A stretch of 22,922 nucleotides of DNA, taken from Candidatus Wukongarchaeum yapensis (lineage in GTDB: Archaea > Asgardarchaeota > Wukongarchaeia > Wukongarchaeales > Wukongarchaeaceae). Below the pieces are notes generated by a model. The model was not told the origin of the DNA. It saw only the letters and a program-made list of their open reading frames with translations, and did no database searches. Both the position numbers and the translations under genes were made by a program. Shown here in pieces: positions 257 to 22,916 of the stretch. The number at the start of each line of letters is the position of its first letter. The stretch's first letter is position 1. The stretch is taken from the NCBI GenBank assembly GCA_016840425.1, contig JAEOSI010000009.1, positions 1 through 22,922 on the forward strand. The letters are read 5' to 3'.

Positions 257-1507
257 ATGAAAGTTTATTCAACGGGTATAAAAGAACTTGATAAGATTTT
301 GGGAGGAGGTATTCCGCATAGCTGTTCTGTTCTTTTGCTTGGAGAGACGGGGACAGAGCCTGAAACGTTAGCCTTTGAAATCTTGTATTTTCACCTTAAA
401 CAGGGGGGACAGGGAGTGCTTTATGTTTTCGATCACCCTCCTTCAGAAGTTAGGCATAAAATGAAGAGCTTTGGGCGGGACATTAAAAAGTTTGAGAAGA
501 ATGAAGAAAAACTCATTTTGGCCGATTTTTTCACCCATGCCTTTAGTTTAGAAGAGTTTTATGAGCCTGAGAAATATTTTTGTAAAAGACCGACAGACTA
601 CACTTATATCACGGACTACTTTGATAATATTTGGCAAATATTACTACAAAAATTAGGAGATAATAGGGGTTATTTGGGCGTTGTTTTTTCCCTTACTACG
701 GTGGCTCATTGGTGTGGTGAGAGAGAAGCTTTAAGACTTGCTTATTTAATAGCTACGAAATATAGGCCTTTGGGATGCACTATTTTTGTTTTGGATCCAT
801 CCACTGTGAATGAAAGTACTTTGGGCATGTTAAAAAACAGGAGCGAAGTCGTGATAAACCTCTCCATTGAAGAATTTAAAGGGGTTTCAGAGAAGAGGAT
901 AATGGTTTTAAAGTCGCCTCTACCCGCATGGTTAAACAAACCCCTAACTTACACATCTTTACCAGAAAAAGGTTTCTTTATCAGGGAGTCCATTATCCAA
1001 GAATTCGAGGCTTTTAAAGAGACTATAAAATTCGACGAAGATACTGACGAATTAAAGGTTTATGGCGCACCAAGTGTTTTGATAACACGTCGCCTTGTTT
1101 TAGAACTTTTGGAAAATATGAATAACAAGAAAGTTGAGGAGATATTAGTAGAGGCTATGATTCGTTACCTAAAAATTTTGGAGGTAAATACCCATTTAAA
1201 AGGAGAAAAGCTTTTAGAATACTATCTTAAAAGCTTGCCTGTTCGGGGTTGGGGCTTTATTGAGCTTGTTGAATTCAGAAAAAACAAATTTACTTTACGC
1301 AAAAATCCTACAGACTTTGCAGGCGAATACAAGGAAGGTCTTGAAGGGTTTAAAGCGCTTGTTAAAGGCATTGTAAAAGGTGCGGGGTTCTATTTTTTTG
1401 GCAATAAGGTAAGAGTAAAAGAGAAAAAATGCATTTTGAAAGGTGATCCTTTTTGCGAGTACGAGGTAGTTAAGTTGTCTCCCAAGAGAACAGTAAATGA
1501 AACCTAA
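257..1507 (+). CDS. KaiC/RAD55-like (RecA-fold) protein with degenerate Walker motifs, fused to a C-terminal V4R domain
   Basis: N-terminus STGIKELDKILGGGIP is typical of archaeal KaiC/RAD55. The Walker A position reads GETGTEPE (no GKT). The C-terminal ~150 aa carry GWG and end in CILKGDPFCEY, the V4R signature. Confidence 0.8.
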   Translation: MKVYSTGIKELDKILGGGIPHSCSVLLLGETGTEPETLAFEILYFHLKQGGQGVLYVFDHPPSEVRHKMKSFGRDIKKFEKNEEKLILADFFTHAFSLEEFYEPEKYFCKRPTDYTYITDYFDNIWQILLQKLGDNRGYLGVVFSLTTVAHWCGEREALRLAYLIATKYRPLGCTIFVLDPSTVNESTLGMLKNRSEVVINLSIEEFKGVSEKRIMVLKSPLPAWLNKPLTYTSLPEKGFFIRESIIQEFEAFKETIKFDEDTDELKVYGAPSVLITRRLVLELLENMNNKKVEEILVEAMIRYLKILEVNTHLKGEKLLEYYLKSLPVRGWGFIELVEFRKNKFTLRKNPTDFAGEYKEGLEGFKALVKGIVKGAGFYFFGNKVRVKEKKCILKGDPFCEYEVVKLSPKRTVNET

Positions 1508-8706: not shown

Positions 8707-9960
8707 ATGAAGAGGACCAACATCTTCAAGTTAAAGCCAGCAATTAAGGAGCAGGAGCAAAGACTGTTCGAGTTAGCCGATAACTGTGCAAGGATGTTTA
8801 ACGAGATAAACTATAAGCGTAGACAGTCCTTTTTCTCGCGAAACTTCGACTGGAACACCGACGAATCCTACCACAAGTATAAGAAGGTTATAGGCTCTGC
8901 TACAGCTCAACAAGTAACAAGGAAGAACAACGAGGCTTGGAAGTCTTTCTTCGCTTTGTTAAGGTTGAAAAAGCAGGGAAAACTCCCAAGGCAGATAAGA
9001 AAGGTTTCTCCTCCAGGCTACTGGAAAGACAGGAAAACGGGGAAAAGGGTTTTAATGATTCTTATAAGGTGTAACTGTTATAAGCTTTCCGAGAAGTATC
9101 TAAAACTCCCCTTCGGGCTAAAAGTTAGGTGGAAAGGAAAGAACAGGTGGGAGGGGAAAAAGCAGGGAAGGTTAGAGATACGTTACGATGACCTCTCAAG
9201 CCGATGGTATGCTTATATGCCGGTAGAGGTAGAAAGAAAACCGCTACATCAACCAACAGGAGACAAGAAAAAGAAGGCATACGTCGACTTGGGGATCATA
9301 AACATCATAACCAGTTGGATAGAAGGAGAAAAAAGACCGGGGATATATTCTGGTAGTACTGTTTTAAGCGATTGGTGGTATTGGAACGAAAAAATAGGAG
9401 AATATCAAAGCAACATGGAGAAAAACGGGAAAAGGAAAACATCAAAAAGGTTAAGAAAATTGTTTAGGAAGAGGAAGAAAAGGTTTAGACATTTGATAAA
9501 CACGATAATAGCGAGGTTTGTGAAAAACTGCTGGGAAAAAGGAGTTTCAGAAATCGTTATAGGAGACGTAAAAAACATAAGAGAGAACAGTAGAAAGAAA
9601 AAGAAAGGTAGAAAAGCTAACGCTATGATAAACAACTTCTGGTCTTTTAACTACATCTACGAAAGACTAAGAACAACGGTGGAAAACTACGGGATAAAGA
9701 TGAGGAAAAAGGAGGAGAAATACACGTCTAAAACATGTTCTCTCTGCGGGAAAGTGCACAGAAACGGTAGAAAACACAGGGGACTATACGTTTGTAAAAC
9801 GCACGGGGTAACAATGAACGCTGATGTTAACGGTGTTGCAAACATAGCTAACCCCATATTCCCGAAGCCCTACTGGCGGGATAGGGATAACTGGCTGGTG
9901 ACACAGCCATCAGTTGTGAAAGCTCTAATTTTCACAACCGTAAAACCTCCAACCCTTTAG
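8707..9960 (+). CDS. tnpB: TnpB RNA-guided endonuclease (IS605 OrfB family)
   Basis: RuvC-I VDLG, RuvC-II position IGD, E-x-YTS followed by CSLCG...CKTH zinc finger, and RuvC-III NADVNGVANI. The stop codon lies inside the right-end hairpin. Confidence 0.92.
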   Translation: MKRTNIFKLKPAIKEQEQRLFELADNCARMFNEINYKRRQSFFSRNFDWNTDESYHKYKKVIGSATAQQVTRKNNEAWKSFFALLRLKKQGKLPRQIRKVSPPGYWKDRKTGKRVLMILIRCNCYKLSEKYLKLPFGLKVRWKGKNRWEGKKQGRLEIRYDDLSSRWYAYMPVEVERKPLHQPTGDKKKKAYVDLGIINIITSWIEGEKRPGIYSGSTVLSDWWYWNEKIGEYQSNMEKNGKRKTSKRLRKLFRKRKKRFRHLINTIIARFVKNCWEKGVSEIVIGDVKNIRENSRKKKKGRKANAMINNFWSFNYIYERLRTTVENYGIKMRKKEEKYTSKTCSLCGKVHRNGRKHRGLYVCKTHGVTMNADVNGVANIANPIFPKPYWRDRDNWLVTQPSVVKALIFTTVKPPTL

Positions 9961-10084: not shown

Positions 10085-10849
10085 TTAAATGAAATGTATT
10101 TCCCTTAGTATGGCTGTGATGTCTACTAAGGCTTCTTTAGCCGTTAATGGGACGCCCTCTAGGGAAGACTTAAAGACCTCTTCATCAAACCGCACAACCC
10201 CTGCCACTTCTAATCCCATATTCCTAGCTTTTGACATTACTATGTCAGCTGTTTCCGGCGTTACCTTATTTATCACGAGCCAAAATTTCTTTTTCATTTT
10301 CGTTAATTCTTCTTTGAGGATTTTAGCTAACATAAGCGACTCAGCTGTTGGGTCAACTATTGCTAAAGCTGCATCGCATCCCTCCTCAACCCCTCGACCT
10401 AAATGCTCTAGACCAGCATCTGCATCAACGAGGATCATTTCTCTATCCTCTAACAACAGATTCTTGAGAAGAGTTTTAGCTAGAAAATTGAAAGGACAGG
10501 CGCATCCTTCCCCTAACTCTCTCACCTTACCTATGGTTACTAACTTGATGTCCTCAGGCGATGAGGATACATACTCGCTGGGCAAATTGGCTAATTTAAT
10601 GCCTTCTCCAGCTTCTATTAATGCATTTACTATGTTGACTTCTCCTCTTTTGAATATATCTTTCTTACCTCCAAGATATTCAACAAGAGGTTTCGGCGAC
10701 CCTGCACCGAGAATCTGAGGAAGCAAGGTATTAGACTCATCGGAGTCTACTACATAAACTTCATAATTTTTAGATAACACCTTGGCTATGAGAACTGTTA
10801 AAGCTGATTTCCCTGAACCGCCCTTACCGCAAATCATAACCTTCATCAA
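10085..10849 (-). CDS. cooC: CooC/AcsF-type nickel-insertion ATPase
   Basis: CGKGGSGKS, DSDES, EGCACP nickel-binding motif and DADAGLEHLGRG. Confidence 0.85.
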   Translation of the reverse strand: MMKVMICGKGGSGKSALTVLIAKVLSKNYEVYVVDSDESNTLLPQILGAGSPKPLVEYLGGKKDIFKRGEVNIVNALIEAGEGIKLANLPSEYVSSSPEDIKLVTIGKVRELGEGCACPFNFLAKTLLKNLLLEDREMILVDADAGLEHLGRGVEEGCDAALAIVDPTAESLMLAKILKEELTKMKKKFWLVINKVTPETADIVMSKARNMGLEVAGVVRFDEEVFKSSLEGVPLTAKEALVDITAILREIHFI

Positions 10850-10861
10850 AACATCACCTCT

Positions 10862-11059
10862 TCAAGCTTTAGGCTTAAGAATCATAACGGAGTTAAGCGT
10901 GTCTATTAAAGACACATCGACTTCTTCTAACGTTGCCACTTCCTCAAGTTCTATGCTCTTCAAACTAACTATGTTTCCTTCCTTGACTATAAGGGCAACA
11001 TCCCTAGCAATAAGCTTCCTGCCCGTATATTCCTCTAGATAGACCTTAAGTAGACACAT
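10862..11059 (-). CDS. cooT: CooT-family nickel-binding protein (start reassigned to the second ATG)
   Basis: 65 aa beginning Met-Cys (MCLLKVYL), the CooT hallmark; ends 12 bp upstream of cooC. Confidence 0.7.
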   Translation of the reverse strand: MCLLKVYLEEYTGRKLIARDVALIVKEGNIVSLKSIELEEVATLEEVDVSLIDTLNSVMILKPKA

Positions 11060-11508
11060 TTGTTTTCCCATTTGATAGAAGAGCTACTCCAATAAATTTT
11101 TTTTCCATTGAGACTTGTCGTAATTTTTCAATCAATTGCTAGAGTATTACCTAAGCTAATACTTTTTCGCCCAACTTTACATCTAACTCAACAAAAGGAT
11201 TTAAATGAAAGCTTACCCCAATTTTATCCTCATGTAGCAAGAAGACCCTTCCGCAACACTCTACCCACATATTAACTGTTTTTTTGTTTTTTAGCCGTTT
11301 TGGGAAAAGTTAAGTAAGTTAAACCTAGTGTAAAAACTGTTTTGTTTTTAGGTTTTTGTTTTCTTTTTTGCAGGTTGATTTTCCTTGATGTTTTTCGTTG
11401 TTTTAGGTTTTGCTTTCCTTCTACAGCTGTTAGTTAATCATACGGCTTCTCTATTCCCGGCTTCTCATCGAAAATCTTATTGCGATTGTAATTTATTATA
11501 GTGTATCT

Positions 11509-14726: not shown

Positions 14727-14810
14727 GACCAAAACGAAAACTAAGGGTTTTATGAGGAGAGACCGAGAGACTATTCGGGTGACTACGAGAGAACCTACCA
14801 CTAAAATCAT
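14727..14810. repeat. Second copy of the dispersed element seen at 6673-6873
   Basis: Shares GACCAAAAC, TTTTATGAGGAGAGACCG, GACTACG, AGAACCT and AAAATCAT in the same order. Confidence 0.7.
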
Positions 14811-15484
14811 ACCACTAACTTGCCGGTACCCCCACAAAACCTCGTCACATAATCAATAGTTATTTTCCCAGCTTTTTCCAGCGTTTTTTCATCTATGCCC
14901 GGTACACCGCATAATAGAAACAGGACATTTTTTGTCCCCATTATTATTTTTGTATTGTCCGCGTCTCTATACGGATAGACGGCTACGAGTTTTTCATCGT
15001 CTGAGATCACGATCTCGTTTCCTTTTAAAACCAAAGGGCTTTTCATACCTATCCCTAAGAAATTTTCTCCCTCATTTGCAAGTCGCATAAAAAGATTTCC
15101 TTTAACCTTGTCGAGGTCAAGGGCTGCTATAGAGATTTCAGAGGTGATTGATGCAAGATTGTAAGCATCAACTAAACTGTTGATTTTTGGAATGGGATTT
15201 CCCCTTAAAATGCGTCTTATTAAAGCTTCAGCAGCTGGCCTGATTTTTGTAGGATCTATTCCTACACGCCAAAAGAAGTCACGATAGGCCCTTAAAACAG
15301 GGATATCCTTTAAAGTTTCGAGGCTATATTTTTCTTTAACAGTTTTTATTAGTTCTTTTTTGAACTCTTCAAGTTCTGGCTTCTTTTTTTCGACGTTTAC
15401 CCCGTTTATATGGCCTACTAAGACGTTTAGACCTGGAAACTTGGCCCTCAACTCTTGATCTATTAAAATCATTTTATTATCCAC
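14807..15484 (-). CDS. Stand-alone B3/B4 (PheRS beta editing-like) domain protein
   Basis: RAYRDFFWRVGIDPTKIRPAAEALIRR, PKINSLVDAYN and DDEKLVAVYPYRD motifs. Confidence 0.85.
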   Translation of the reverse strand: MDNKMILIDQELRAKFPGLNVLVGHINGVNVEKKKPELEEFKKELIKTVKEKYSLETLKDIPVLRAYRDFFWRVGIDPTKIRPAAEALIRRILRGNPIPKINSLVDAYNLASITSEISIAALDLDKVKGNLFMRLANEGENFLGIGMKSPLVLKGNEIVISDDEKLVAVYPYRDADNTKIIMGTKNVLFLLCGVPGIDEKTLEKAGKITIDYVTRFCGGTGKLVV

Positions 15485-15520
15485 ATCCTTTTCTTTTTAA
15501 TAAGGGGCTTAATTGGAGGG

Positions 15521-16144
15521 CTATGTTGTTTCTATTAGTTTTTCTATTTGCTTTTCAATTTCTTCCTTTTGCGGTATTGCACTTTTTGACTCTATTTTTA
15601 GGGGGTTTCCTTTTTTGAAATAGAGTAGGATAGGGGTACTGGTAATACCGTATTCTTCCCAAGTGTTCGTGGACGTTATGTCCATTTGATAAAAACGGAC
15701 TTGGTCTTTAAACCTTTCTTCAACATCTTTTAAATCTTTCTCCAATCTTTTACAGGAAGGACAGTTTTTGGACATAAAAATTAGGGCTACTGGTTTGTTT
15801 GATTTCAAAACTAAAGCTTCAAATTCGTGGTCATTTATCGTTCTTATAAAAGCTTCTCCTTCCTCTTTTTTCGGTTTTATTTTGAATATTTTTAATATTT
15901 TGTCAAAGATGCTTTCATACTTTTTGTATGATATACGGTATCCTAGGTCTTCGATCTTCTTCTCAAGGTCGGGTACGTCGATTTTTTCTGGGTCATATGT
16001 CACTACAACTTTACGTATTAGGAGGTTTATGCGGACATCTTTAACGCCTTCCAGCTTCTTCATCTCTTTTTCTATAGTTAGAGCGCAAGAAGCACAATCC
16101 ATTCGATCAATAGGTATGGTCTTTCTCAAGTAATTTTCCGACAT
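15521..16144 (-). CDS. HMA (CopZ-like) domain fused to a thioredoxin domain
   Basis: N-terminal MDCASC with LEGV...DLGY HMA pattern. C-terminal CPSC with cis-Pro loop ITSTP and FKKG. Confidence 0.8.
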   Translation of the reverse strand: MSENYLRKTIPIDRMDCASCALTIEKEMKKLEGVKDVRINLLIRKVVVTYDPEKIDVPDLEKKIEDLGYRISYKKYESIFDKILKIFKIKPKKEEGEAFIRTINDHEFEALVLKSNKPVALIFMSKNCPSCKRLEKDLKDVEERFKDQVRFYQMDITSTNTWEEYGITSTPILLYFKKGNPLKIESKSAIPQKEEIEKQIEKLIETT

Positions 16145-16316
16145 GAAACCATCTCTTCTTCATTTTGCAGTTTGAACTAACTAAAAAACGAACATAAAAA
16201 TATAGGAAAGGGGTTTGATTTGATTTTCGCTCTCTTTTGTTAATCAGGTATGGTTTAATGCCAAAGATGTTACTACAGTACTTTGATGTTTTTTGGGATG
16301 TTTGGCGTTTTCTTTC

Positions 16317-16460
16317 TTATTTTAAGTATTTTTCAGGGTTTTTCTCGAATTTTTCCTTACATGCTTGACAGCAGAAATAGTAGGTTTCTCTTTCATATTC
16401 TGTTTTATAAGGTGTTTTTTTCTCATCCACTTCCATTCCACAAACAAGGTCTTTTGCCAA
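16317..16460 (-). CDS. Stand-alone YHS/TRASH metal-binding protein, 47 aa (not in the ORF track)
   Basis: TTG start after a GGGTGA ribosome-binding site. Translation MAKDLVCGMEVDEKKTPYKTEYERETYYFCCQACKEKFEKNPEKYLK. Confidence 0.9.
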   Translation of the reverse strand: MAKDLVCGMEVDEKKTPYKTEYERETYYFCCQACKEKFEKNPEKYLK

Positions 16461-16546
16461 CTATTATCACCCTAGTAAAACTTTATTGGCAGTTAATCTT
16501 TTTTATAAATAAAGCCTTCCTTATCTTAAAATCAAGATCTGACAAA

Positions 16547-17293
16547 TTACTCTTTAGATAATACTACTCCCTCTGTTGGTGTGATTGTGTAATGTAATGG
16601 TTCTTTTAAATAACCGAACAAAGGTGATTTAATAACCCTTAAAAATCTATTAAAACGTTTACTAACTTTTTCTACGGAAAATCGAATCACTATATCTGCA
16701 AAGTTCTCAAGCATTGCTAAACCCTTCTCACTAGCGATTCGAGGATCGAGTAGGTACAAAGCAGTACCAAGCGGTTTGTACTTCATCCTCGAGGCATAAA
16801 CAAATTTTAAAGCTTCATCTTCCCCAGTAAAATGGAGTAAACGTCCAGCAGAAAGGATAACGCCGAAATATTCTCCTGGCTGGGTTCTTTGCAAAATCTC
16901 CTCCCTTAATTTATGTGCAAAGTTACCAATATAGGTTATATCAGTAGGGCGTTTACAATAATATTTTTCTTTTGGATAAAAACTTTCAAGATCGAAAGCA
17001 TGTGTAAACATGTCCGCTAAGATAAACTTCCCTTCTTCTTCATATTTTTTCAAATTCCAACCGTAAGTCTTCATTTTTTCTCGCAAATCCATGGGCGGCA
17101 AATCAAAGTCATAAATAACACCTAAGTCCCCTGCCTTCAACCGATTCCACAAAATCTGTAATGCAACAATATCAGATTCAGAACCAATATCTGTTAAAAA
17201 AAGGATCATAGAATTTCGAGGGATACCGCGGCCCAAAATCTCATTAAACTTGTCTATTCCCGTAGAAATAAGGCGTTCAGATTCTCTCTCCAT
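16547..17293 (-). CDS. KaiC/RAD55-like protein with degenerate Walker motifs
   Basis: ISTGIDKFNEILGRGIP start; Walker A position reads TDIGSESD; clear paralog of 257-1507. Confidence 0.8.
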   Translation of the reverse strand: MERESERLISTGIDKFNEILGRGIPRNSMILFLTDIGSESDIVALQILWNRLKAGDLGVIYDFDLPPMDLREKMKTYGWNLKKYEEEGKFILADMFTHAFDLESFYPKEKYYCKRPTDITYIGNFAHKLREEILQRTQPGEYFGVILSAGRLLHFTGEDEALKFVYASRMKYKPLGTALYLLDPRIASEKGLAMLENFADIVIRFSVEKVSKRFNRFLRVIKSPLFGYLKEPLHYTITPTEGVVLSKE

Positions 17294-17386
17294 AGACCGC
17301 CACCATCAACTTTGTTGTAAATAGATAATAAATCTATGATTTATAACACCTAACAACTATTAAAAAGTTCTGTTCTATTGGGCGTT

Positions 17387-19459
17387 TTAAAGCGTTTTTG
17401 GGTTGAATCTTTTGAGTAGTAGGGAGTTTGTGACTACTGTTACTGAGCTTGAAGACATGGCTGCTGCAGCGTAAATTGGGTCTAAGAGTAGGCCTAGTAA
17501 TGGGTATAGTAGACCTGCGGCAATAGGTATTAGGGCGGTGTTGTAGAAGAAGGCCCAGAAAAGGTTTTGTTTAAATTTTCTTACTGTTTGTTTGCTTAGT
17601 TGTATTGCGGCTACTACGTCTCTTAGGTCGTCTTTTACCAGGATTATGTCGCCGGTTTCTACGGCTACGTCTGTTCCGCTCCCGATGGCTATTCCTATAT
17701 CAGCTTGTGCTAGGGCAGGGGCATCGTTTATTCCGTCCCCTACCATGCCTACGATTTTTCCCTCGTCTTGCAACTTTTTTATGACGTTGGCTTTATCTTG
17801 GGGTAGAACCTCTGATAAAACCTTTGTTATTCCAAGTTTTTCCGCTATGGCATCTGCGGTTCTTCTATTGTCGCCTGTGAGCATGATGACTTCGATGCCC
17901 ATTTCTTGGAGTTTTTTCACCGCATCCTTTGAATTTTCTTTTAAAGTATCGGCTACCGCGATAAGCCCCTTGATCATTTTATTTACTGTAAGGATCATTA
18001 TTGTTTTTCCTTCTTTTTCGAGGGCTTGGATTTTTTCTTCTATGTCTTCGTAAGGGATACTGTTATTTTCCATGAGTTTTCGGTTGCCCAAAAGAATTTC
18101 TTCTCCGTCATAAACTGCTTTTACTCCTTGGCCTGGTACTGCTTCAAAAGATTCAGCGTCCGGGATGTCCAAACCTTTTGCTTTTGCTCCTTTTACTATA
18201 GCTTCCCCTAAGGGGTGTTCTGACCCTTTTTCAGCCATGGATGCCAGTTTTAAAACTTCATCCGAGAGTTCGATTGGCACAACGTCTGTTACTGAGGGTT
18301 CTCCTTTGGTGAGAGTTCCTGTTTTGTCAAATACTATTGTTTGTACTTTATAGGCTCTTTCCAGGTATTCTCCGCCCTTGATCAGGATGCCGTTCTCTGC
18401 CCCTTTCCCTGTCCCCACCATGATAGCGGTAGGTGTAGCAATACCTAAAGCACAAGGACAAGCAATTATTAGTACTGCTATGAGTATTGCAAGGGAAAAA
18501 GTAAAGCTTTCATCGCCTATAAAATACCATATAGAGAAGGAGAACAAAGCGATTAATATCACAGAAGGTACGAAGCGGGCGGATATATAATCGGCAAGTC
18601 TCTGCATTGGAGCTTTAGAAAGCTGGGCTTCTTCGACCAAATTTATGATCTGGGAAAGAGTGGTGTCAGATCCAACTTTTATTGCTTTAAATTTTAACAG
18701 TCCCACCTTGTTGAGAGTAGCACCGATAACCTCATCGCCTGGATTTTTCTCTACGGGAATGCTTTCTCCTGTGATCATTGATTCGTCAACAGAAGAATGA
18801 CCTTCAATAACCACCCCATCTACAGGTATCTTTTCTCCAGGCCTAACTACCACTATATCATCAACTTCGACGGATTCTACCGGTATTTCCGTCTCTTCTC
18901 CATCTCTTATAACGTGGGCCATCTTAGGCTGGAGATCCATGAGTTTTATTAAAGCTTCTGAAGCCCTTCCCTTAGCAAGATCCTCTAACAATTTACCTAC
19001 AAGGACTAGGGTTATGATGGCGGCAGCTGTGTCGAAAAATACTTCGGTTTCTTCGAAGATTTCAGGGAAAAATGTTATGATGGTGCTGTAACCATATGCT
19101 GCCGAAGTTCCCATGGCTATTAGGGTGTCCATGTTTGCCGTTCTAACTTTTAAAGCATCAAATGTCCCCTTATAATATCTCCAACCCGCTCCAAACTGTA
19201 CCGGGGTTGCAAATAAGAAAAGCCACTTGTTTTTACTGAAAAAAGGTAAAACATCAAAAAAACTGAAAAAGAAAATAAGAACGGTAAAAGTAAAGCTAAA
19301 AACGACTAACAGCTTTAAATTTCTTAGTTCAACTTCAGGCCTCTCAAAGGTTCTTAAACAAGTCTCACTACAAAAATAATACATTCGCCCCCGAATCTCT
19401 GCTTTAAAAGGAGCCTTTTTTTCATCAACATACATACCGCATACAGGATCTTTTGCCAT
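17387..19459 (-). CDS. copA: Cu(I)-translocating P1B-1 ATPase with an N-terminal YHS domain and no HMA domain
   Basis: KDPVCGM...YFCS..C N-terminus, [24 protein letters not shown], and YN and MxxSS in the C-terminal helices. Confidence 0.92.
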
Positions 19460-19567
19460 ACTGTTTTCTCCTTCTTTTTCTAAATAGTAGCGTAAATATC
19501 TAAGATCATTTCATTATTTTTTTCAACTTTTTATCTACTTATGAACGTTTTCTTTTCATTTAAATCA

Positions 19568-20040
19568 TTAATAATTAAAGATCTCAAAGAGCTTTTCATC
19601 GAGTTTATGATGGCAGTTAGGGCAAACTGCTTTCACTTTAACCCACCCACGAATATGCTTGACGTGAGCTAGTGTCCCACAATAGGGACAGTAGAAAACT
19701 TCATCTCTATACTGTATGTCACGTTGACTTACCACACATTTCACTCTTTCATAACCGCAGACAGGACAAGTTATAAGGTTAGAAGAAAATTCGGTACCGC
19801 ACTTAAAACACTTGATGACGCGGATAGATTGTAAATGTGACGGTTTAATCTTAATGTCCTCATTCGAGGCGGTGTTTTGATCAATTGCAATATCTTGATG
19901 TTTAGCATATGTACTAGAGTGGGTTCTATGGTCATGTCCTCCATAACAACATGATCCTCTTCTGAAGCAGGAAAATACGAAAAATAATGATAAAATTATC
20001 CAAACTACCCAGATAGTAATATATCCTAATCAAATCTCAT
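19568..20040 (-). CDS. Membrane-anchored zinc-ribbon plus RING-like protein, with a 1-nt frameshift after codon 4 (not in the ORF track)
   Basis: Stop-free frame 20029-19568 (153 aa): TM helix, SCCYGGHDHRTH, CFKC-x10-CPVC, then CVVS-x12-CPYC-x4-H-x2-H-x3-W-x6-CPNC. The ATG at 20040 is one base out of frame. Confidence 0.75.
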
Positions 20041-20244: not shown

Positions 20245-21348
20245 CTACCTTAAGATGGGTATGGCGCGATCCTTTTTGCGTTTGGCGAGGGCATGAGGAG
20301 TCGTCAACACTTTCTGGCTGACCTCTCTTGTTTCAAGCCATCCGCTATTGCTTGCTATCTCAACCGCTTCTTTACCTATATCTGTACGAGTTATCAAGGT
20401 TGTCCAACCGTTTTTAGTGCCTACCGCTCCTGCAGAAACGTCAGCCATTTCAGAGGCAAAATCTGAACAAAAACGGCAACCTGTGCGGATATAAGGTTCT
20501 GCCTTTTTCATCGAGATATCCACCAAAGAACCTCCATCTAAGGTCAAGACGAAATCGCGTTTAATATTAATTTTCTTGATATTTGAAAGAGATAATTCCA
20601 TTCCTCCCGCAACAACTTCATCTATGAAATCCGTGTGAAAAGCTTCCATACAAAACAAACCAACAACGAGCTTTATTGCTTTCCCACTCTTCTTACTCCT
20701 AGACTGTTGAAGTCTCCTCACTCCTTCAGTTGAACAAGGTCTCGTAACCACGCTAAAAGATTGAAGCTTAAGCTCCTTTGTAGCCTTTTTAAGAACTGAA
20801 AACTCAAAAGGATAATGATACTTTGTACCAGCAGCAGAAATTATCTCCTCTTTCGTAGTAGCGATCATGGGAACAGGTTTCCATGGCCTTTCAGGGTCCA
20901 TCCGAGTAACAATAGCCCCATCTATATAACCGCTCTCAAGACAGGCACAAAGAATCGATGTAACAGCGCCACCATCCTGTGCCTTTTCCAAAATTTCAGT
21001 CTTTGTCGCCTTTCCGGCCAAAATGTTAAGGTAAGACCCTACTAACCCATCTTTAATTGCTTCTTTCTGGGGTTCCATGTTTATTCTTCCCAAGCCGCGG
21101 GGACAAGCATCGCTACAACGACCGCAACTTATACACTCCCCAATAAGCTTAGGTAGAGCTTCATACCCTATCACTTCCACAGGACACACACCGACGCAAA
21201 CACCACAACCGCAACAATAACCTTTTGAAATAACAAGTTTGTCTAAAACCCCATAATCTGGTCTATCCTTTTTTCTCCTGGTTTTTTTCTTCTGTTCTTT
21301 CATCGTACCTTCATTCTTCATAACTAATTCTTCCGCCAAAATTTTCAT
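20245..21348 (-). CDS. FrhB/FdhB-family (F420 hydrogenase beta-like) protein with N-terminal 2x[4Fe-4S] ferredoxin
   Basis: CCGCGVCVGVCP and CISCGRCSDACP, GGAVTSIL, AAGTKY, GLFCME and CRFCSDFASEMADVSAG. The true start is probably one of the downstream ATGs. Confidence 0.85.
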   Translation of the reverse strand: MKILAEELVMKNEGTMKEQKKKTRRKKDRPDYGVLDKLVISKGYCCGCGVCVGVCPVEVIGYEALPKLIGECISCGRCSDACPRGLGRINMEPQKEAIKDGLVGSYLNILAGKATKTEILEKAQDGGAVTSILCACLESGYIDGAIVTRMDPERPWKPVPMIATTKEEIISAAGTKYHYPFEFSVLKKATKELKLQSFSVVTRPCSTEGVRRLQQSRSKKSGKAIKLVVGLFCMEAFHTDFIDEVVAGGMELSLSNIKKINIKRDFVLTLDGGSLVDISMKKAEPYIRTGCRFCSDFASEMADVSAGAVGTKNGWTTLITRTDIGKEAVEIASNSGWLETREVSQKVLTTPHALAKRKKDRAIPILR

Positions 21349-21973: not shown

Positions 21974-22345
21974 TTGGTTGGTTTTTTAAATTTAAACATA
22001 ACTGCTTTGCCTCGCTTTTTAGCCCAGTATCACCCTTGGGGGCGTGATGAGTGGATTGTGGGATTTATAATTTCACTTATATTGGTTTCGCTTATTATTG
22101 TCGTACTTATAGGCCTTTGGATTTATCGTGATGCTGAGAGTAGGGGAGAAAACGGAGTTTTATGGCTACTAATAGTGTTTTTTTTGAATATCATAGGGTT
22201 AATTATTTGGTTGTTAGTAAGGCCTCCTAAAAAAGAGTTAGCAGAAAGAAAGGTTGTTGAGAAGGTTCTCGTATGCCCTTATTGCAGGTTTGAAAATCCT
22301 CCAGATATACGTTTTTGTTCGAATTGTGGTGCAAGCCTAGAATAG
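21974..22345 (+). CDS. Membrane protein with two TM helices (PLDc_N-like) and a C-terminal zinc ribbon
   Basis: WIYRDAESRGENGVLWLLIVFF...WLLVRPP and CPYC-x10-CSNC; GGAGG ribosome-binding site upstream. Confidence 0.8.
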   Translation: MVGFLNLNITALPRFLAQYHPWGRDEWIVGFIISLILVSLIIVVLIGLWIYRDAESRGENGVLWLLIVFFLNIIGLIIWLLVRPPKKELAERKVVEKVLVCPYCRFENPPDIRFCSNCGASLE

Positions 22346-22532: not shown

Positions 22533-22916
22533 ATGTGTTTTTTGGATAAGTTTCTAAATTTAAATATTACAGATTTACTTACCTTGTTAGGACACGATAC
22601 TAGAGGTAGAGTGCCAGGTTGGGAGGTTGGATGGATAGTTTTTGGAGTGGTTATTTGGGTCTTTTTTGTCTTGTTTTTGAGCGTTTTGGTTTATAATGAT
22701 GCAGAGAGGAGGGGAGCAAATGGACTTTTATGGTTTATAGTGGTGTTTTTTACGATGCTTTTAGGTTTAATTATTTGGTTGATAGTAAGACCTCCCAAAA
22801 AAGAGAGAGTAGAAAGAAGAGTTATGGTTGAAAAGGTTCTTGTATGTCCTTATTGTAGGACTGAAAACGCTCCAAACACGCAATTTTGCTCAAATTGTGG
22901 TTCAAGTCTAGAGTAG
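22533..22916 (+). CDS. Paralogous membrane zinc-ribbon protein (likely start TTG 22542)
   Basis: VYNDAERRGANGLLW...WLIVRPP and CPYC-x10-CSNC. The start aligns with the TTG of the upstream paralog. Confidence 0.8.
   Translation: MCFLDKFLNLNITDLLTLLGHDTRGRVPGWEVGWIVFGVVIWVFFVLFLSVLVYNDAERRGANGLLWFIVVFFTMLLGLIIWLIVRPPKKERVERRVMVEKVLVCPYCRTENAPNTQFCSNCGSSLE

Follow-up and report, generated by a model that had tools for sequence, protein, structure and literature searches.

The copper locus of Candidatus Wukongarchaeum yapensis

The window analysed here is a stretch of 22,922 nt of contig JAEOSI010000009.1 from Candidatus Wukongarchaeum yapensis, whose genome of 2.16 Mb is 92% complete and encodes Ras-family GTPases. 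Six genes on the minus strand of the window, at 14807-20040, form a locus around a copper pump. In the order of transcription they encode a transmembrane protein with a zinc ribbon and a RING-like domain, a CopA-type pump, a KaiC-like protein without catalytic motifs (pseudo-KaiC), a free YHS protein, a fusion of an HMA domain to thioredoxin (HMA-thioredoxin) and a B3/B4-domain protein. The intergenic gaps measure 108, 93, 86, 172 and 36 bp from the RING-like gene to the B3/B4 gene. A first-pass annotation made from the sequence letters had described six co-oriented genes with gaps of 36-172 bp, and the coordinates and strands agree with that description; a common orientation of six genes is not by itself beyond chance. 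The domains that it named were recovered as matches to Pfam and NCBIfam models. Five of the six products score above the Pfam cut-offs, and the RING-like frame is recognised only below the cut-off and by its predicted fold.

The pump (690 residues; 17387-19459, minus strand) belongs to the copper P1B family, with 651 bits against a cut-off of 397 for the NCBIfam model TIGR01511 (E-value 1.4e-195). Its translation carries CPC in transmembrane helix 4, YN in helix 5 and MSSS in helix 6 (the MxxSS motif), together with DKTGT, TGES and GDGxND, and on these motifs it is classed as a P1B-1 Cu(I)-exporting P-type ATPase. The N-terminus of the pump is a YHS/TRASH domain (PF04945, residues 3-42) and there is no HMA domain. 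The HMA-thioredoxin gene (15521-16144, minus strand) encodes 207 residues that match PF00403 with 62 bits (5e-17) and PF00085 with 56 bits (3e-15), both above the Pfam cut-offs. In the protein a conserved linker joins the CopZ-like MxCxxC domain to a thioredoxin fold that contains CPSC and the cis-proline; residues C17, C20, C128, C131 and P171 are invariant in 18 homologs.

The free YHS/TRASH protein consists of 47 residues read from a TTG start (16317-16460, minus strand). It matches PF04945 with 60 bits (1.8e-16), its cysteine triad C7/C30/C34 is invariant, and from its sequence it is assigned to the CopM/CopT type of chaperone. The earlier statement that two genes of the locus are invisible to standard open reading frame (ORF) calling holds only in part for this gene, which is called on two of four related contigs.

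No CopR with helix-turn-helix (HTH) and TRASH domains and no CsoR was found in the window or in the genome as far as the queries reach, as the first-pass annotation had said of the window. Across the genome YHS/TRASH matches are limited to two, both of which belong to this locus, and no HTH-encoding ORF was seen in the window. A 220-residue gene divergent from copA in a metagenomic relative (locus L025) was considered as a regulator and rejected, as its product is of a surface type and rich in repeats, and the genome has many copies of it.

AT-rich spacers with TATA-like elements precede the KaiC-like, YHS and HMA-thioredoxin genes, and the element before the HMA-thioredoxin gene is conserved in the congener, where the spacers around the KaiC-like gene are enlarged to 251 and 223 nt. 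Separate promoters are therefore likely. Among the spacers of the locus only the 36-nt spacer before the B3/B4 gene appears operon-like from its sequence. A promoter and terminator scan gave nothing above chance; its consensus is bacterial and does not apply to archaea.

The CopA/HMA-thioredoxin pair outside the genus

The locus was compared with a sample of 301 genomes from the phylum, with 185,579 species genomes and with metagenomic contigs. Eleven independent contexts were found outside the genus, comprising four Odinarchaeia genomes and seven Bathyarchaeia or metagenomic contigs, and in all of them a YHS-type CopA lies next to an HMA-thioredoxin gene or an HMA-only gene. In the phylum sample two genera alone have the HMA-thioredoxin fusion, that of the window and one of Odinarchaeia, and in the latter it adjoins a YHS-type CopA in all four genomes. 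Five metagenomic homologs of the fusion, with 50-59% identity, lie 30-110 bp downstream of a YHS-CopA gene, and their other neighbours are unrelated. Among the species genomes, full-length fusions were confined to Hodarchaeota (the name that the record of a relative gives to the genus of the window), Bathyarchaeia and Odinarchaeia, again beside YHS-CopA, and in two further cases CopA is followed by an HMA-only protein. Together with the P1B-1 signature of the pump, this adjacency supports the copper-handling reading that the first-pass annotation had given to the locus.

Of the six genes, the pump, the free YHS gene and the HMA-thioredoxin gene are the three that keep company in other archaea. 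A free YHS gene lies between the CopA and HMA genes in one of the eleven outside contexts; Candidatus Hecatella (L057) has the order CopA, free YHS, HMA, which is the order of the window minus the KaiC-like gene. Free YHS genes also occur near CopA in two other genomes (G002 and G023).

Most of the Bathyarchaeia-type YHS-CopA pumps share 67-72% identity with the window CopA (one of them, at L053, shares 55%), whereas other Asgard CopAs, most of which have N-terminal HMA domains, reach at most 62%. Because the pump is closer to the Bathyarchaeia-type proteins than to the other Asgard CopAs, the comparison suggests that the cassette has been laterally shared. The CopA/HMA-thioredoxin cassette is common to Bathyarchaeia, Odinarchaeia and the genus of the window, probably through lateral transfer. 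The best-supported new point of the analysis is a conserved two-gene unit, in which a YHS-type CopA is paired with an HMA-thioredoxin fusion that would give the HMA domain in trans. A literature search found no paper describing an HMA-thioredoxin form of copper chaperone or tying KaiC to CopA.

Neighbours of the pump within the genus

Within the order, the close comparisons cover a second species of the genus and a second family. In the congener (G001) all six genes recur in unchanged order, and the identities are 69% for the RING-like protein, 92% for CopA, 64% for the pseudo-KaiC, 81% for the YHS protein, 90% for HMA-thioredoxin and 94% for the B3/B4 protein. The metagenomic relative at L025 (the contig of P0002) encodes CopA, pseudo-KaiC, YHS and an HMA protein without a thioredoxin domain, and has neither the B3/B4 nor the RING-like gene. 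The contig of a further relative (P0003) carries pseudo-KaiC, YHS, HMA-thioredoxin and B3/B4. These are close kin overall, with CopA 89-92% identical and synonymous divergence (dS) of 0.15-0.97, and since dS is below 1, descent by itself accounts for a shared gene order within the genus. The dS values of the window against the congener (L021) are uneven, at 0.8-0.9 for the KaiC-like and YHS genes and 0.15-0.38 for the B3/B4, HMA-thioredoxin and CopA genes, which could be a trace of recombination or of an exchange that involved the middle segment. At the end of the same congener contig region (L021, 1-277, minus strand) an apparent alpha-glucan phosphorylase with a YSGGLGILAGD motif, cut by the contig end, carries a YHS domain at its N-terminus.

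The pseudo-KaiC gene (16547-17293, minus strand) encodes a single domain of 248 residues that matches PF06745 over model positions 1-226 of 231, with 69.7 bits against a cut-off of 26.6 (3e-19), and matches PH0284 (PDB 2dr3) at 1e-17. Its structural model in the Atlas has a predicted template modelling score (pTM) of 0.89, and template modelling (TM) scores to clusters of archaeal single-domain KaiC/RAD55 proteins are 0.84-0.89. Where the P-loop would be expected the sequence reads TDIGSESD, and the Walker B pattern hhhhD is replaced by VILS. Neither the lysine of Walker A nor the aspartate of Walker B is present in any ortholog or close paralog; a more distant homolog (P0009) retains GVGKT and VLDS. 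The label "pseudo" given by the first-pass annotation is justified by this loss, which makes ATP hydrolysis or autophosphorylation by the protein unlikely.

The protein has few relatives. It forms one cluster at 50% identity among 1.84 billion representatives, and the next matches are 36% identical proteins of about 420 residues with a C-terminal V4R domain. Among 5.8 billion proteins five close relatives were found, all 65-98% identical, and the sister family within the order yielded nothing at E≤1e-20. By its distribution the gene is an insertion peculiar to the genus, placed between copA and the YHS gene. The ratio of nonsynonymous to synonymous substitution rates (dN/dS) is 0.25-0.30 for the pseudo-KaiC, 0.26 for the RING-like gene and 0.08-0.11 for CopA, values by which the first two are maintained, under looser constraint than the pump.

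Two more KaiC-like paralogs without a Walker A motif are encoded in the genome, neither of them in a copper context. One lies within the window at 257-1507 (plus strand), beside leuA, and encodes 416 residues that are 44% identical to the copA-linked copy. Its C-terminal extension matches V4R with 18.7 bits, below the threshold; homologs of about 420 residues (P0006 and P0007) score 64 and 41.6 bits, above the cut-off, which points to a small family of pseudo-KaiC proteins with V4R sensor domains in two Asgard families. The third paralog, of 244 residues (G000:C110; L022, 7398-10297), directly follows a PAS-PAS-PAS-DUF835 gene and precedes a gene for a low-molecular-weight phosphotyrosine phosphatase; these surroundings are those of a signalling gene and bear no relation to copper. 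Orthologs and paralogs have in common a strongly conserved block of about 30 residues. The conserved histidine/cysteine block of the pseudo-KaiC was considered as a copper-specific site and rejected, since paralogs away from copA share it. A complex prediction for the pseudo-KaiC with the 47-residue YHS protein scored 0.00 and speaks neither for nor against binding. Upstream of the Odinarchaeia cassette, at a distance of about 5 kb, there is a KaiC-like gene that was likewise rejected as a parallel, being only 25% identical and separated from the cassette by three genes (one tubulin and two without a Pfam family).

The B3/B4 gene (14807-15484, minus strand) encodes a standalone protein of 225 residues with a single domain (PF03483, 99 bits, 2.7e-28). 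Its nearest relative of solved structure is the canavanyl-tRNA deacylase CtdA (PDB 9f7e, 1.6e-8). The protein is present in 128 of the 301 phylum genomes; wherever both it and CopA could be placed, either a distance of 166 kb to 1.3 Mb separates them or they belong to different contigs, and they are never near each other outside the genus. The spacer that separates the gene from the HMA-thioredoxin gene is promoter-less and is conserved in the congener (36-37 nt). The B3/B4 gene is probably co-transcribed with HMA-thioredoxin, and it is probably unrelated to copper.

The gene at the head of the locus (19568-20040, minus strand) encodes a transmembrane helix, a cysteine/histidine patch, a zinc ribbon and a RING-like domain, and its 5' end is frame-disrupted. 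The frame is open over 19568-20029 and has no in-frame ATG, GTG or TTG before 19744. In a DNA alignment, ATG-AGA-TTT at position 20040 of the window pairs with the GTG-AGA-TTT start of the congener, after which about 14 extra bases shift the frame; the ORF of the congener is intact with 152 residues. On this alignment the window gene seems to be damaged or atypically started. All of its RING and zinc-ribbon matches in Pfam are below the cut-off, including zf-RING_2 (21.5 bits against 27.3) and Prok-RING_1 (21.5 bits against 29.1). An AlphaFold2 model built with nine homologs has a predicted local distance difference test (pLDDT) score above 90 for residues 70-145, and this part matches the C-terminal zinc-finger/RING domains of the eukaryotic IFT-A and GATOR2/SEA subunits, to which it is most similar, and RING-H2 domains in Foldseek (E-values 4e-5 to 2e-2; TM score normalised by target up to 0.73, for the EL5 RING-H2).

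The ligand spacing in the family of this protein is C-x2-C ... CPxC-x4-H-x2-H ... CPxC, and the second RING ligand is a serine in both copA-linked copies. The zinc-ribbon/RING-like domain (19568-19790 in the window) has expanded greatly in the phylum and is found in 206 of the 301 genomes, often in at least 10 copies (up to 12 or more) and in frames of 83 to 3558 residues. None was found beside CopA among phylum genomes outside the genus, and full-length homologs with the transmembrane helix in another family (f12) have unrelated neighbours.

The surroundings of the locus differ among relatives. In two of them (L025 and L028) leuD-leuC directly abut the cop locus, and the stretch of about 9.7 kb that separates leuD from the locus in the window is for this reason taken as an insertion or rearrangement in the window genome. 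It contains a TnpB-like gene (8707-9960, plus strand) with OrfB_IS605 and Cas12f1-like TNB matches. A small ORF at 10862-11071 (minus strand), with a product starting ...MCLLKVYLEE..., is presumably similar to a CooT-type nickel chaperone, and it adjoins a gene for a CooC/CbiA-like NTPase (10085-10849, minus strand). Upstream of the locus there is an F420-hydrogenase-beta-like gene (20245-21348), likewise on the minus strand. At 21974-22345 and 22533-22916 (plus strand) two tandem genes encode membrane proteins of about 125 residues with a C-terminal zinc ribbon (PLDc_N and Zn_Ribbon_1 matches), and a homolog of these lies two genes upstream of copA in the relative at L025.

Interpretation of the locus

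The archaeal cop cluster comprises CopA, a CopM/CopT TRASH chaperone and CopR (Ettema et al., 2006, in the summary given by PMC7830388). The window locus resembles it in joining a Cu(I) P1B-ATPase with a small TRASH/YHS metallochaperone and an HMA-type chaperone. It differs in that the locus has no HTH-TRASH CopR, nor was one found in the genome, the N-terminus of the pump is YHS rather than HMA, and the HMA chaperone is fused to thioredoxin. A second counterpart, cited in PMC7830388 after Sazinsky (2007), is CopZ of Archaeoglobus fulgidus, in which the HMA domain reportedly has as its fusion partner a redox-active Zn/[2Fe-2S] domain with Cu(II)-reducing activity. By its sequence, the window protein would likewise be an HMA chaperone fused to a second redox-capable domain and encoded with a CopA. 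Its partner domain is instead a thioredoxin fold with CPSC, and the HMA domain comes first.

The other neighbours also have known counterparts. Archaeal single-domain KaiC-like or RAD55-family ATPases were reportedly proposed as hubs of signal transduction by Makarova and colleagues in 2017. The pseudo-KaiC is like this family (PF06745; PH0284, 2dr3) in its full-length Pfam match, its predicted fold and its one RecA-like domain of about 250 residues. Unlike those ATPases, it has no lysine in Walker A and no aspartate in Walker B, and its copA-adjacent subfamily is limited to one genus. The B3/B4 protein shares a length of about 225-230 residues and one B3/B4 domain with CtdA and other standalone proteins of this type (PDB 9f7e and 9mkl); it differs from CtdA in that the sequence similarity is low. 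Residues 70-145 of the RING-like protein are predicted to fold like RING-H2 domains and the C-terminal RING domains of IFT-A, GATOR2 and SEA. Unlike RING-H2, IFT-A and GATOR2 proteins, the window protein is membrane-anchored, has the cysteine/histidine patch and the serine as second ligand, and matches Pfam below the cut-off; any E3 activity is putative.

With moderate confidence, the locus is considered a composite of a core that is a variant of the archaeal cop cluster (YHS-CopA, free YHS and HMA-thioredoxin) and three genus-specific neighbours, with the B3/B4 and RING-like genes as bystanders that owe their position to descent. As CopA itself lacks an HMA domain, the domain is most likely supplied in trans, and HMA-thioredoxin would thereby provide a CopZ-like Cu(I)-binding domain to the pump. 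The CxxC of the thioredoxin domain may keep metal-binding cysteines reduced, or may reduce Cu(II) before hand-over; this redox role is proposed by inference, by analogy with the redox-active N-terminal domain of Archaeoglobus CopZ. A KaiC-like paralog without Walker A would have been inserted between copA and the YHS gene in the genus of the window alone; it is read as a signalling-adaptor paralog, and a link of this protein to copper is rather doubtful. The widespread B3/B4 gene would have come to lie downstream within the genus, where it is probably read through from the HMA-thioredoxin promoter, and one member of a phylum-wide family of transmembrane, zinc-ribbon and RING-like proteins would have come to lie upstream.

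Several observations weigh against this composite. The core order of CopA, pseudo-KaiC, YHS and HMA is kept in all four related contigs while both flanks are rearranged, and the pseudo-KaiC is under purifying selection; these two points leave some probability to a copper-linked role of the protein. The genome, in which no CopR or CsoR was found, has a regulatory gap that an extra gene could fill. A juxtamembrane CC..HDH patch after the transmembrane helix occurs only in the two copA-linked RING-like copies and is absent from paralogs elsewhere. The same observations favour an alternative in which the pseudo-KaiC, possibly with the free YHS and RING-like proteins, is a lineage-specific copper-sensing or regulatory addition that replaces CopR, its dead ATPase scaffold sensing the loading of the chaperone and controlling CopA or its expression. 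The ties of the paralog family to sensor domains, through V4R fusions and a PAS-DUF835 neighbour, point in that direction as well. However, the association is found only among genomes with dS below 1 and may be simply inherited, no cysteine or histidine residues are specific to the pseudo-KaiC orthologs, and the RING-like gene is missing from the locus of one relative and frame-disrupted in the window. Bathyarchaeia and Odinarchaeia moreover have the same cassette without a pseudo-KaiC, and such an addition is held to be unlikely. A more specific version, in which the pseudo-KaiC was recruited from the sensor-associated paralogs and acts with the free YHS protein as a copper sensor or adaptor other than a transcription factor to control the CopA/HMA-thioredoxin cassette, is quite improbable; it would be the first case of a KaiC-family pseudo-ATPase wired into metal homeostasis.

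It is about equally improbable that the pseudo-KaiC is a recent duplicate in functional drift, present in the cop locus by chance and without an important role. Its identity of 64-67% compared with 89-94% for its neighbours, a dN/dS two to three times that of CopA, the lost catalytic motifs and the two paralogs in the same genome would fit such a history. The reading frames are nevertheless intact in the window, in G001 and in the contigs of P0002 and P0003, dN/dS is well below 1, and the block of about 30 residues is strongly conserved across orthologs and paralogs. Far less probable than any of these is the module proposed by the first-pass annotation, in which all six genes would couple copper export to post-translational control by a pseudo-ATPase hub and a RING-like E3, to thiol repair and possibly to tRNA proofreading. 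Co-orientation, short gaps, the identical order in the congener and the conserved spacer before B3/B4 are in its favour. Outside the genus the linkage disappears, as the KaiC-like, RING-like and B3/B4 genes lie beside copA in none of the eleven contexts and nowhere in the phylum comparison, in spite of the wide occurrence of the B3/B4 protein and the RING-like domain. The relative at L025 also keeps the pump, pseudo-KaiC, YHS and HMA genes without B3/B4 or the RING-like gene, and the serine at the second RING ligand in the copA-linked copies counts against the module as well. The idea of thiol and HMA functions acting in trans has real comparative backing, because HMA-thioredoxin adjoins YHS-CopA in the outside contexts. 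For the signalling part, the lack of linkage to copA that the first-pass annotation had itself named as refuting is what was found outside the genus.

A module of copper-linked signalling and tRNA proofreading should not be carried forward on present evidence, and the pseudo-KaiC insertion is best regarded as a lineage-specific curiosity rather than a general system. If the composite reading of the locus is right, a YHS-type CopA is paired with HMA-thioredoxin across several archaeal phyla, which would be a modest result. In the HMA-thioredoxin protein, redox maintenance would then be an integral part of metal delivery, a case open to testing.

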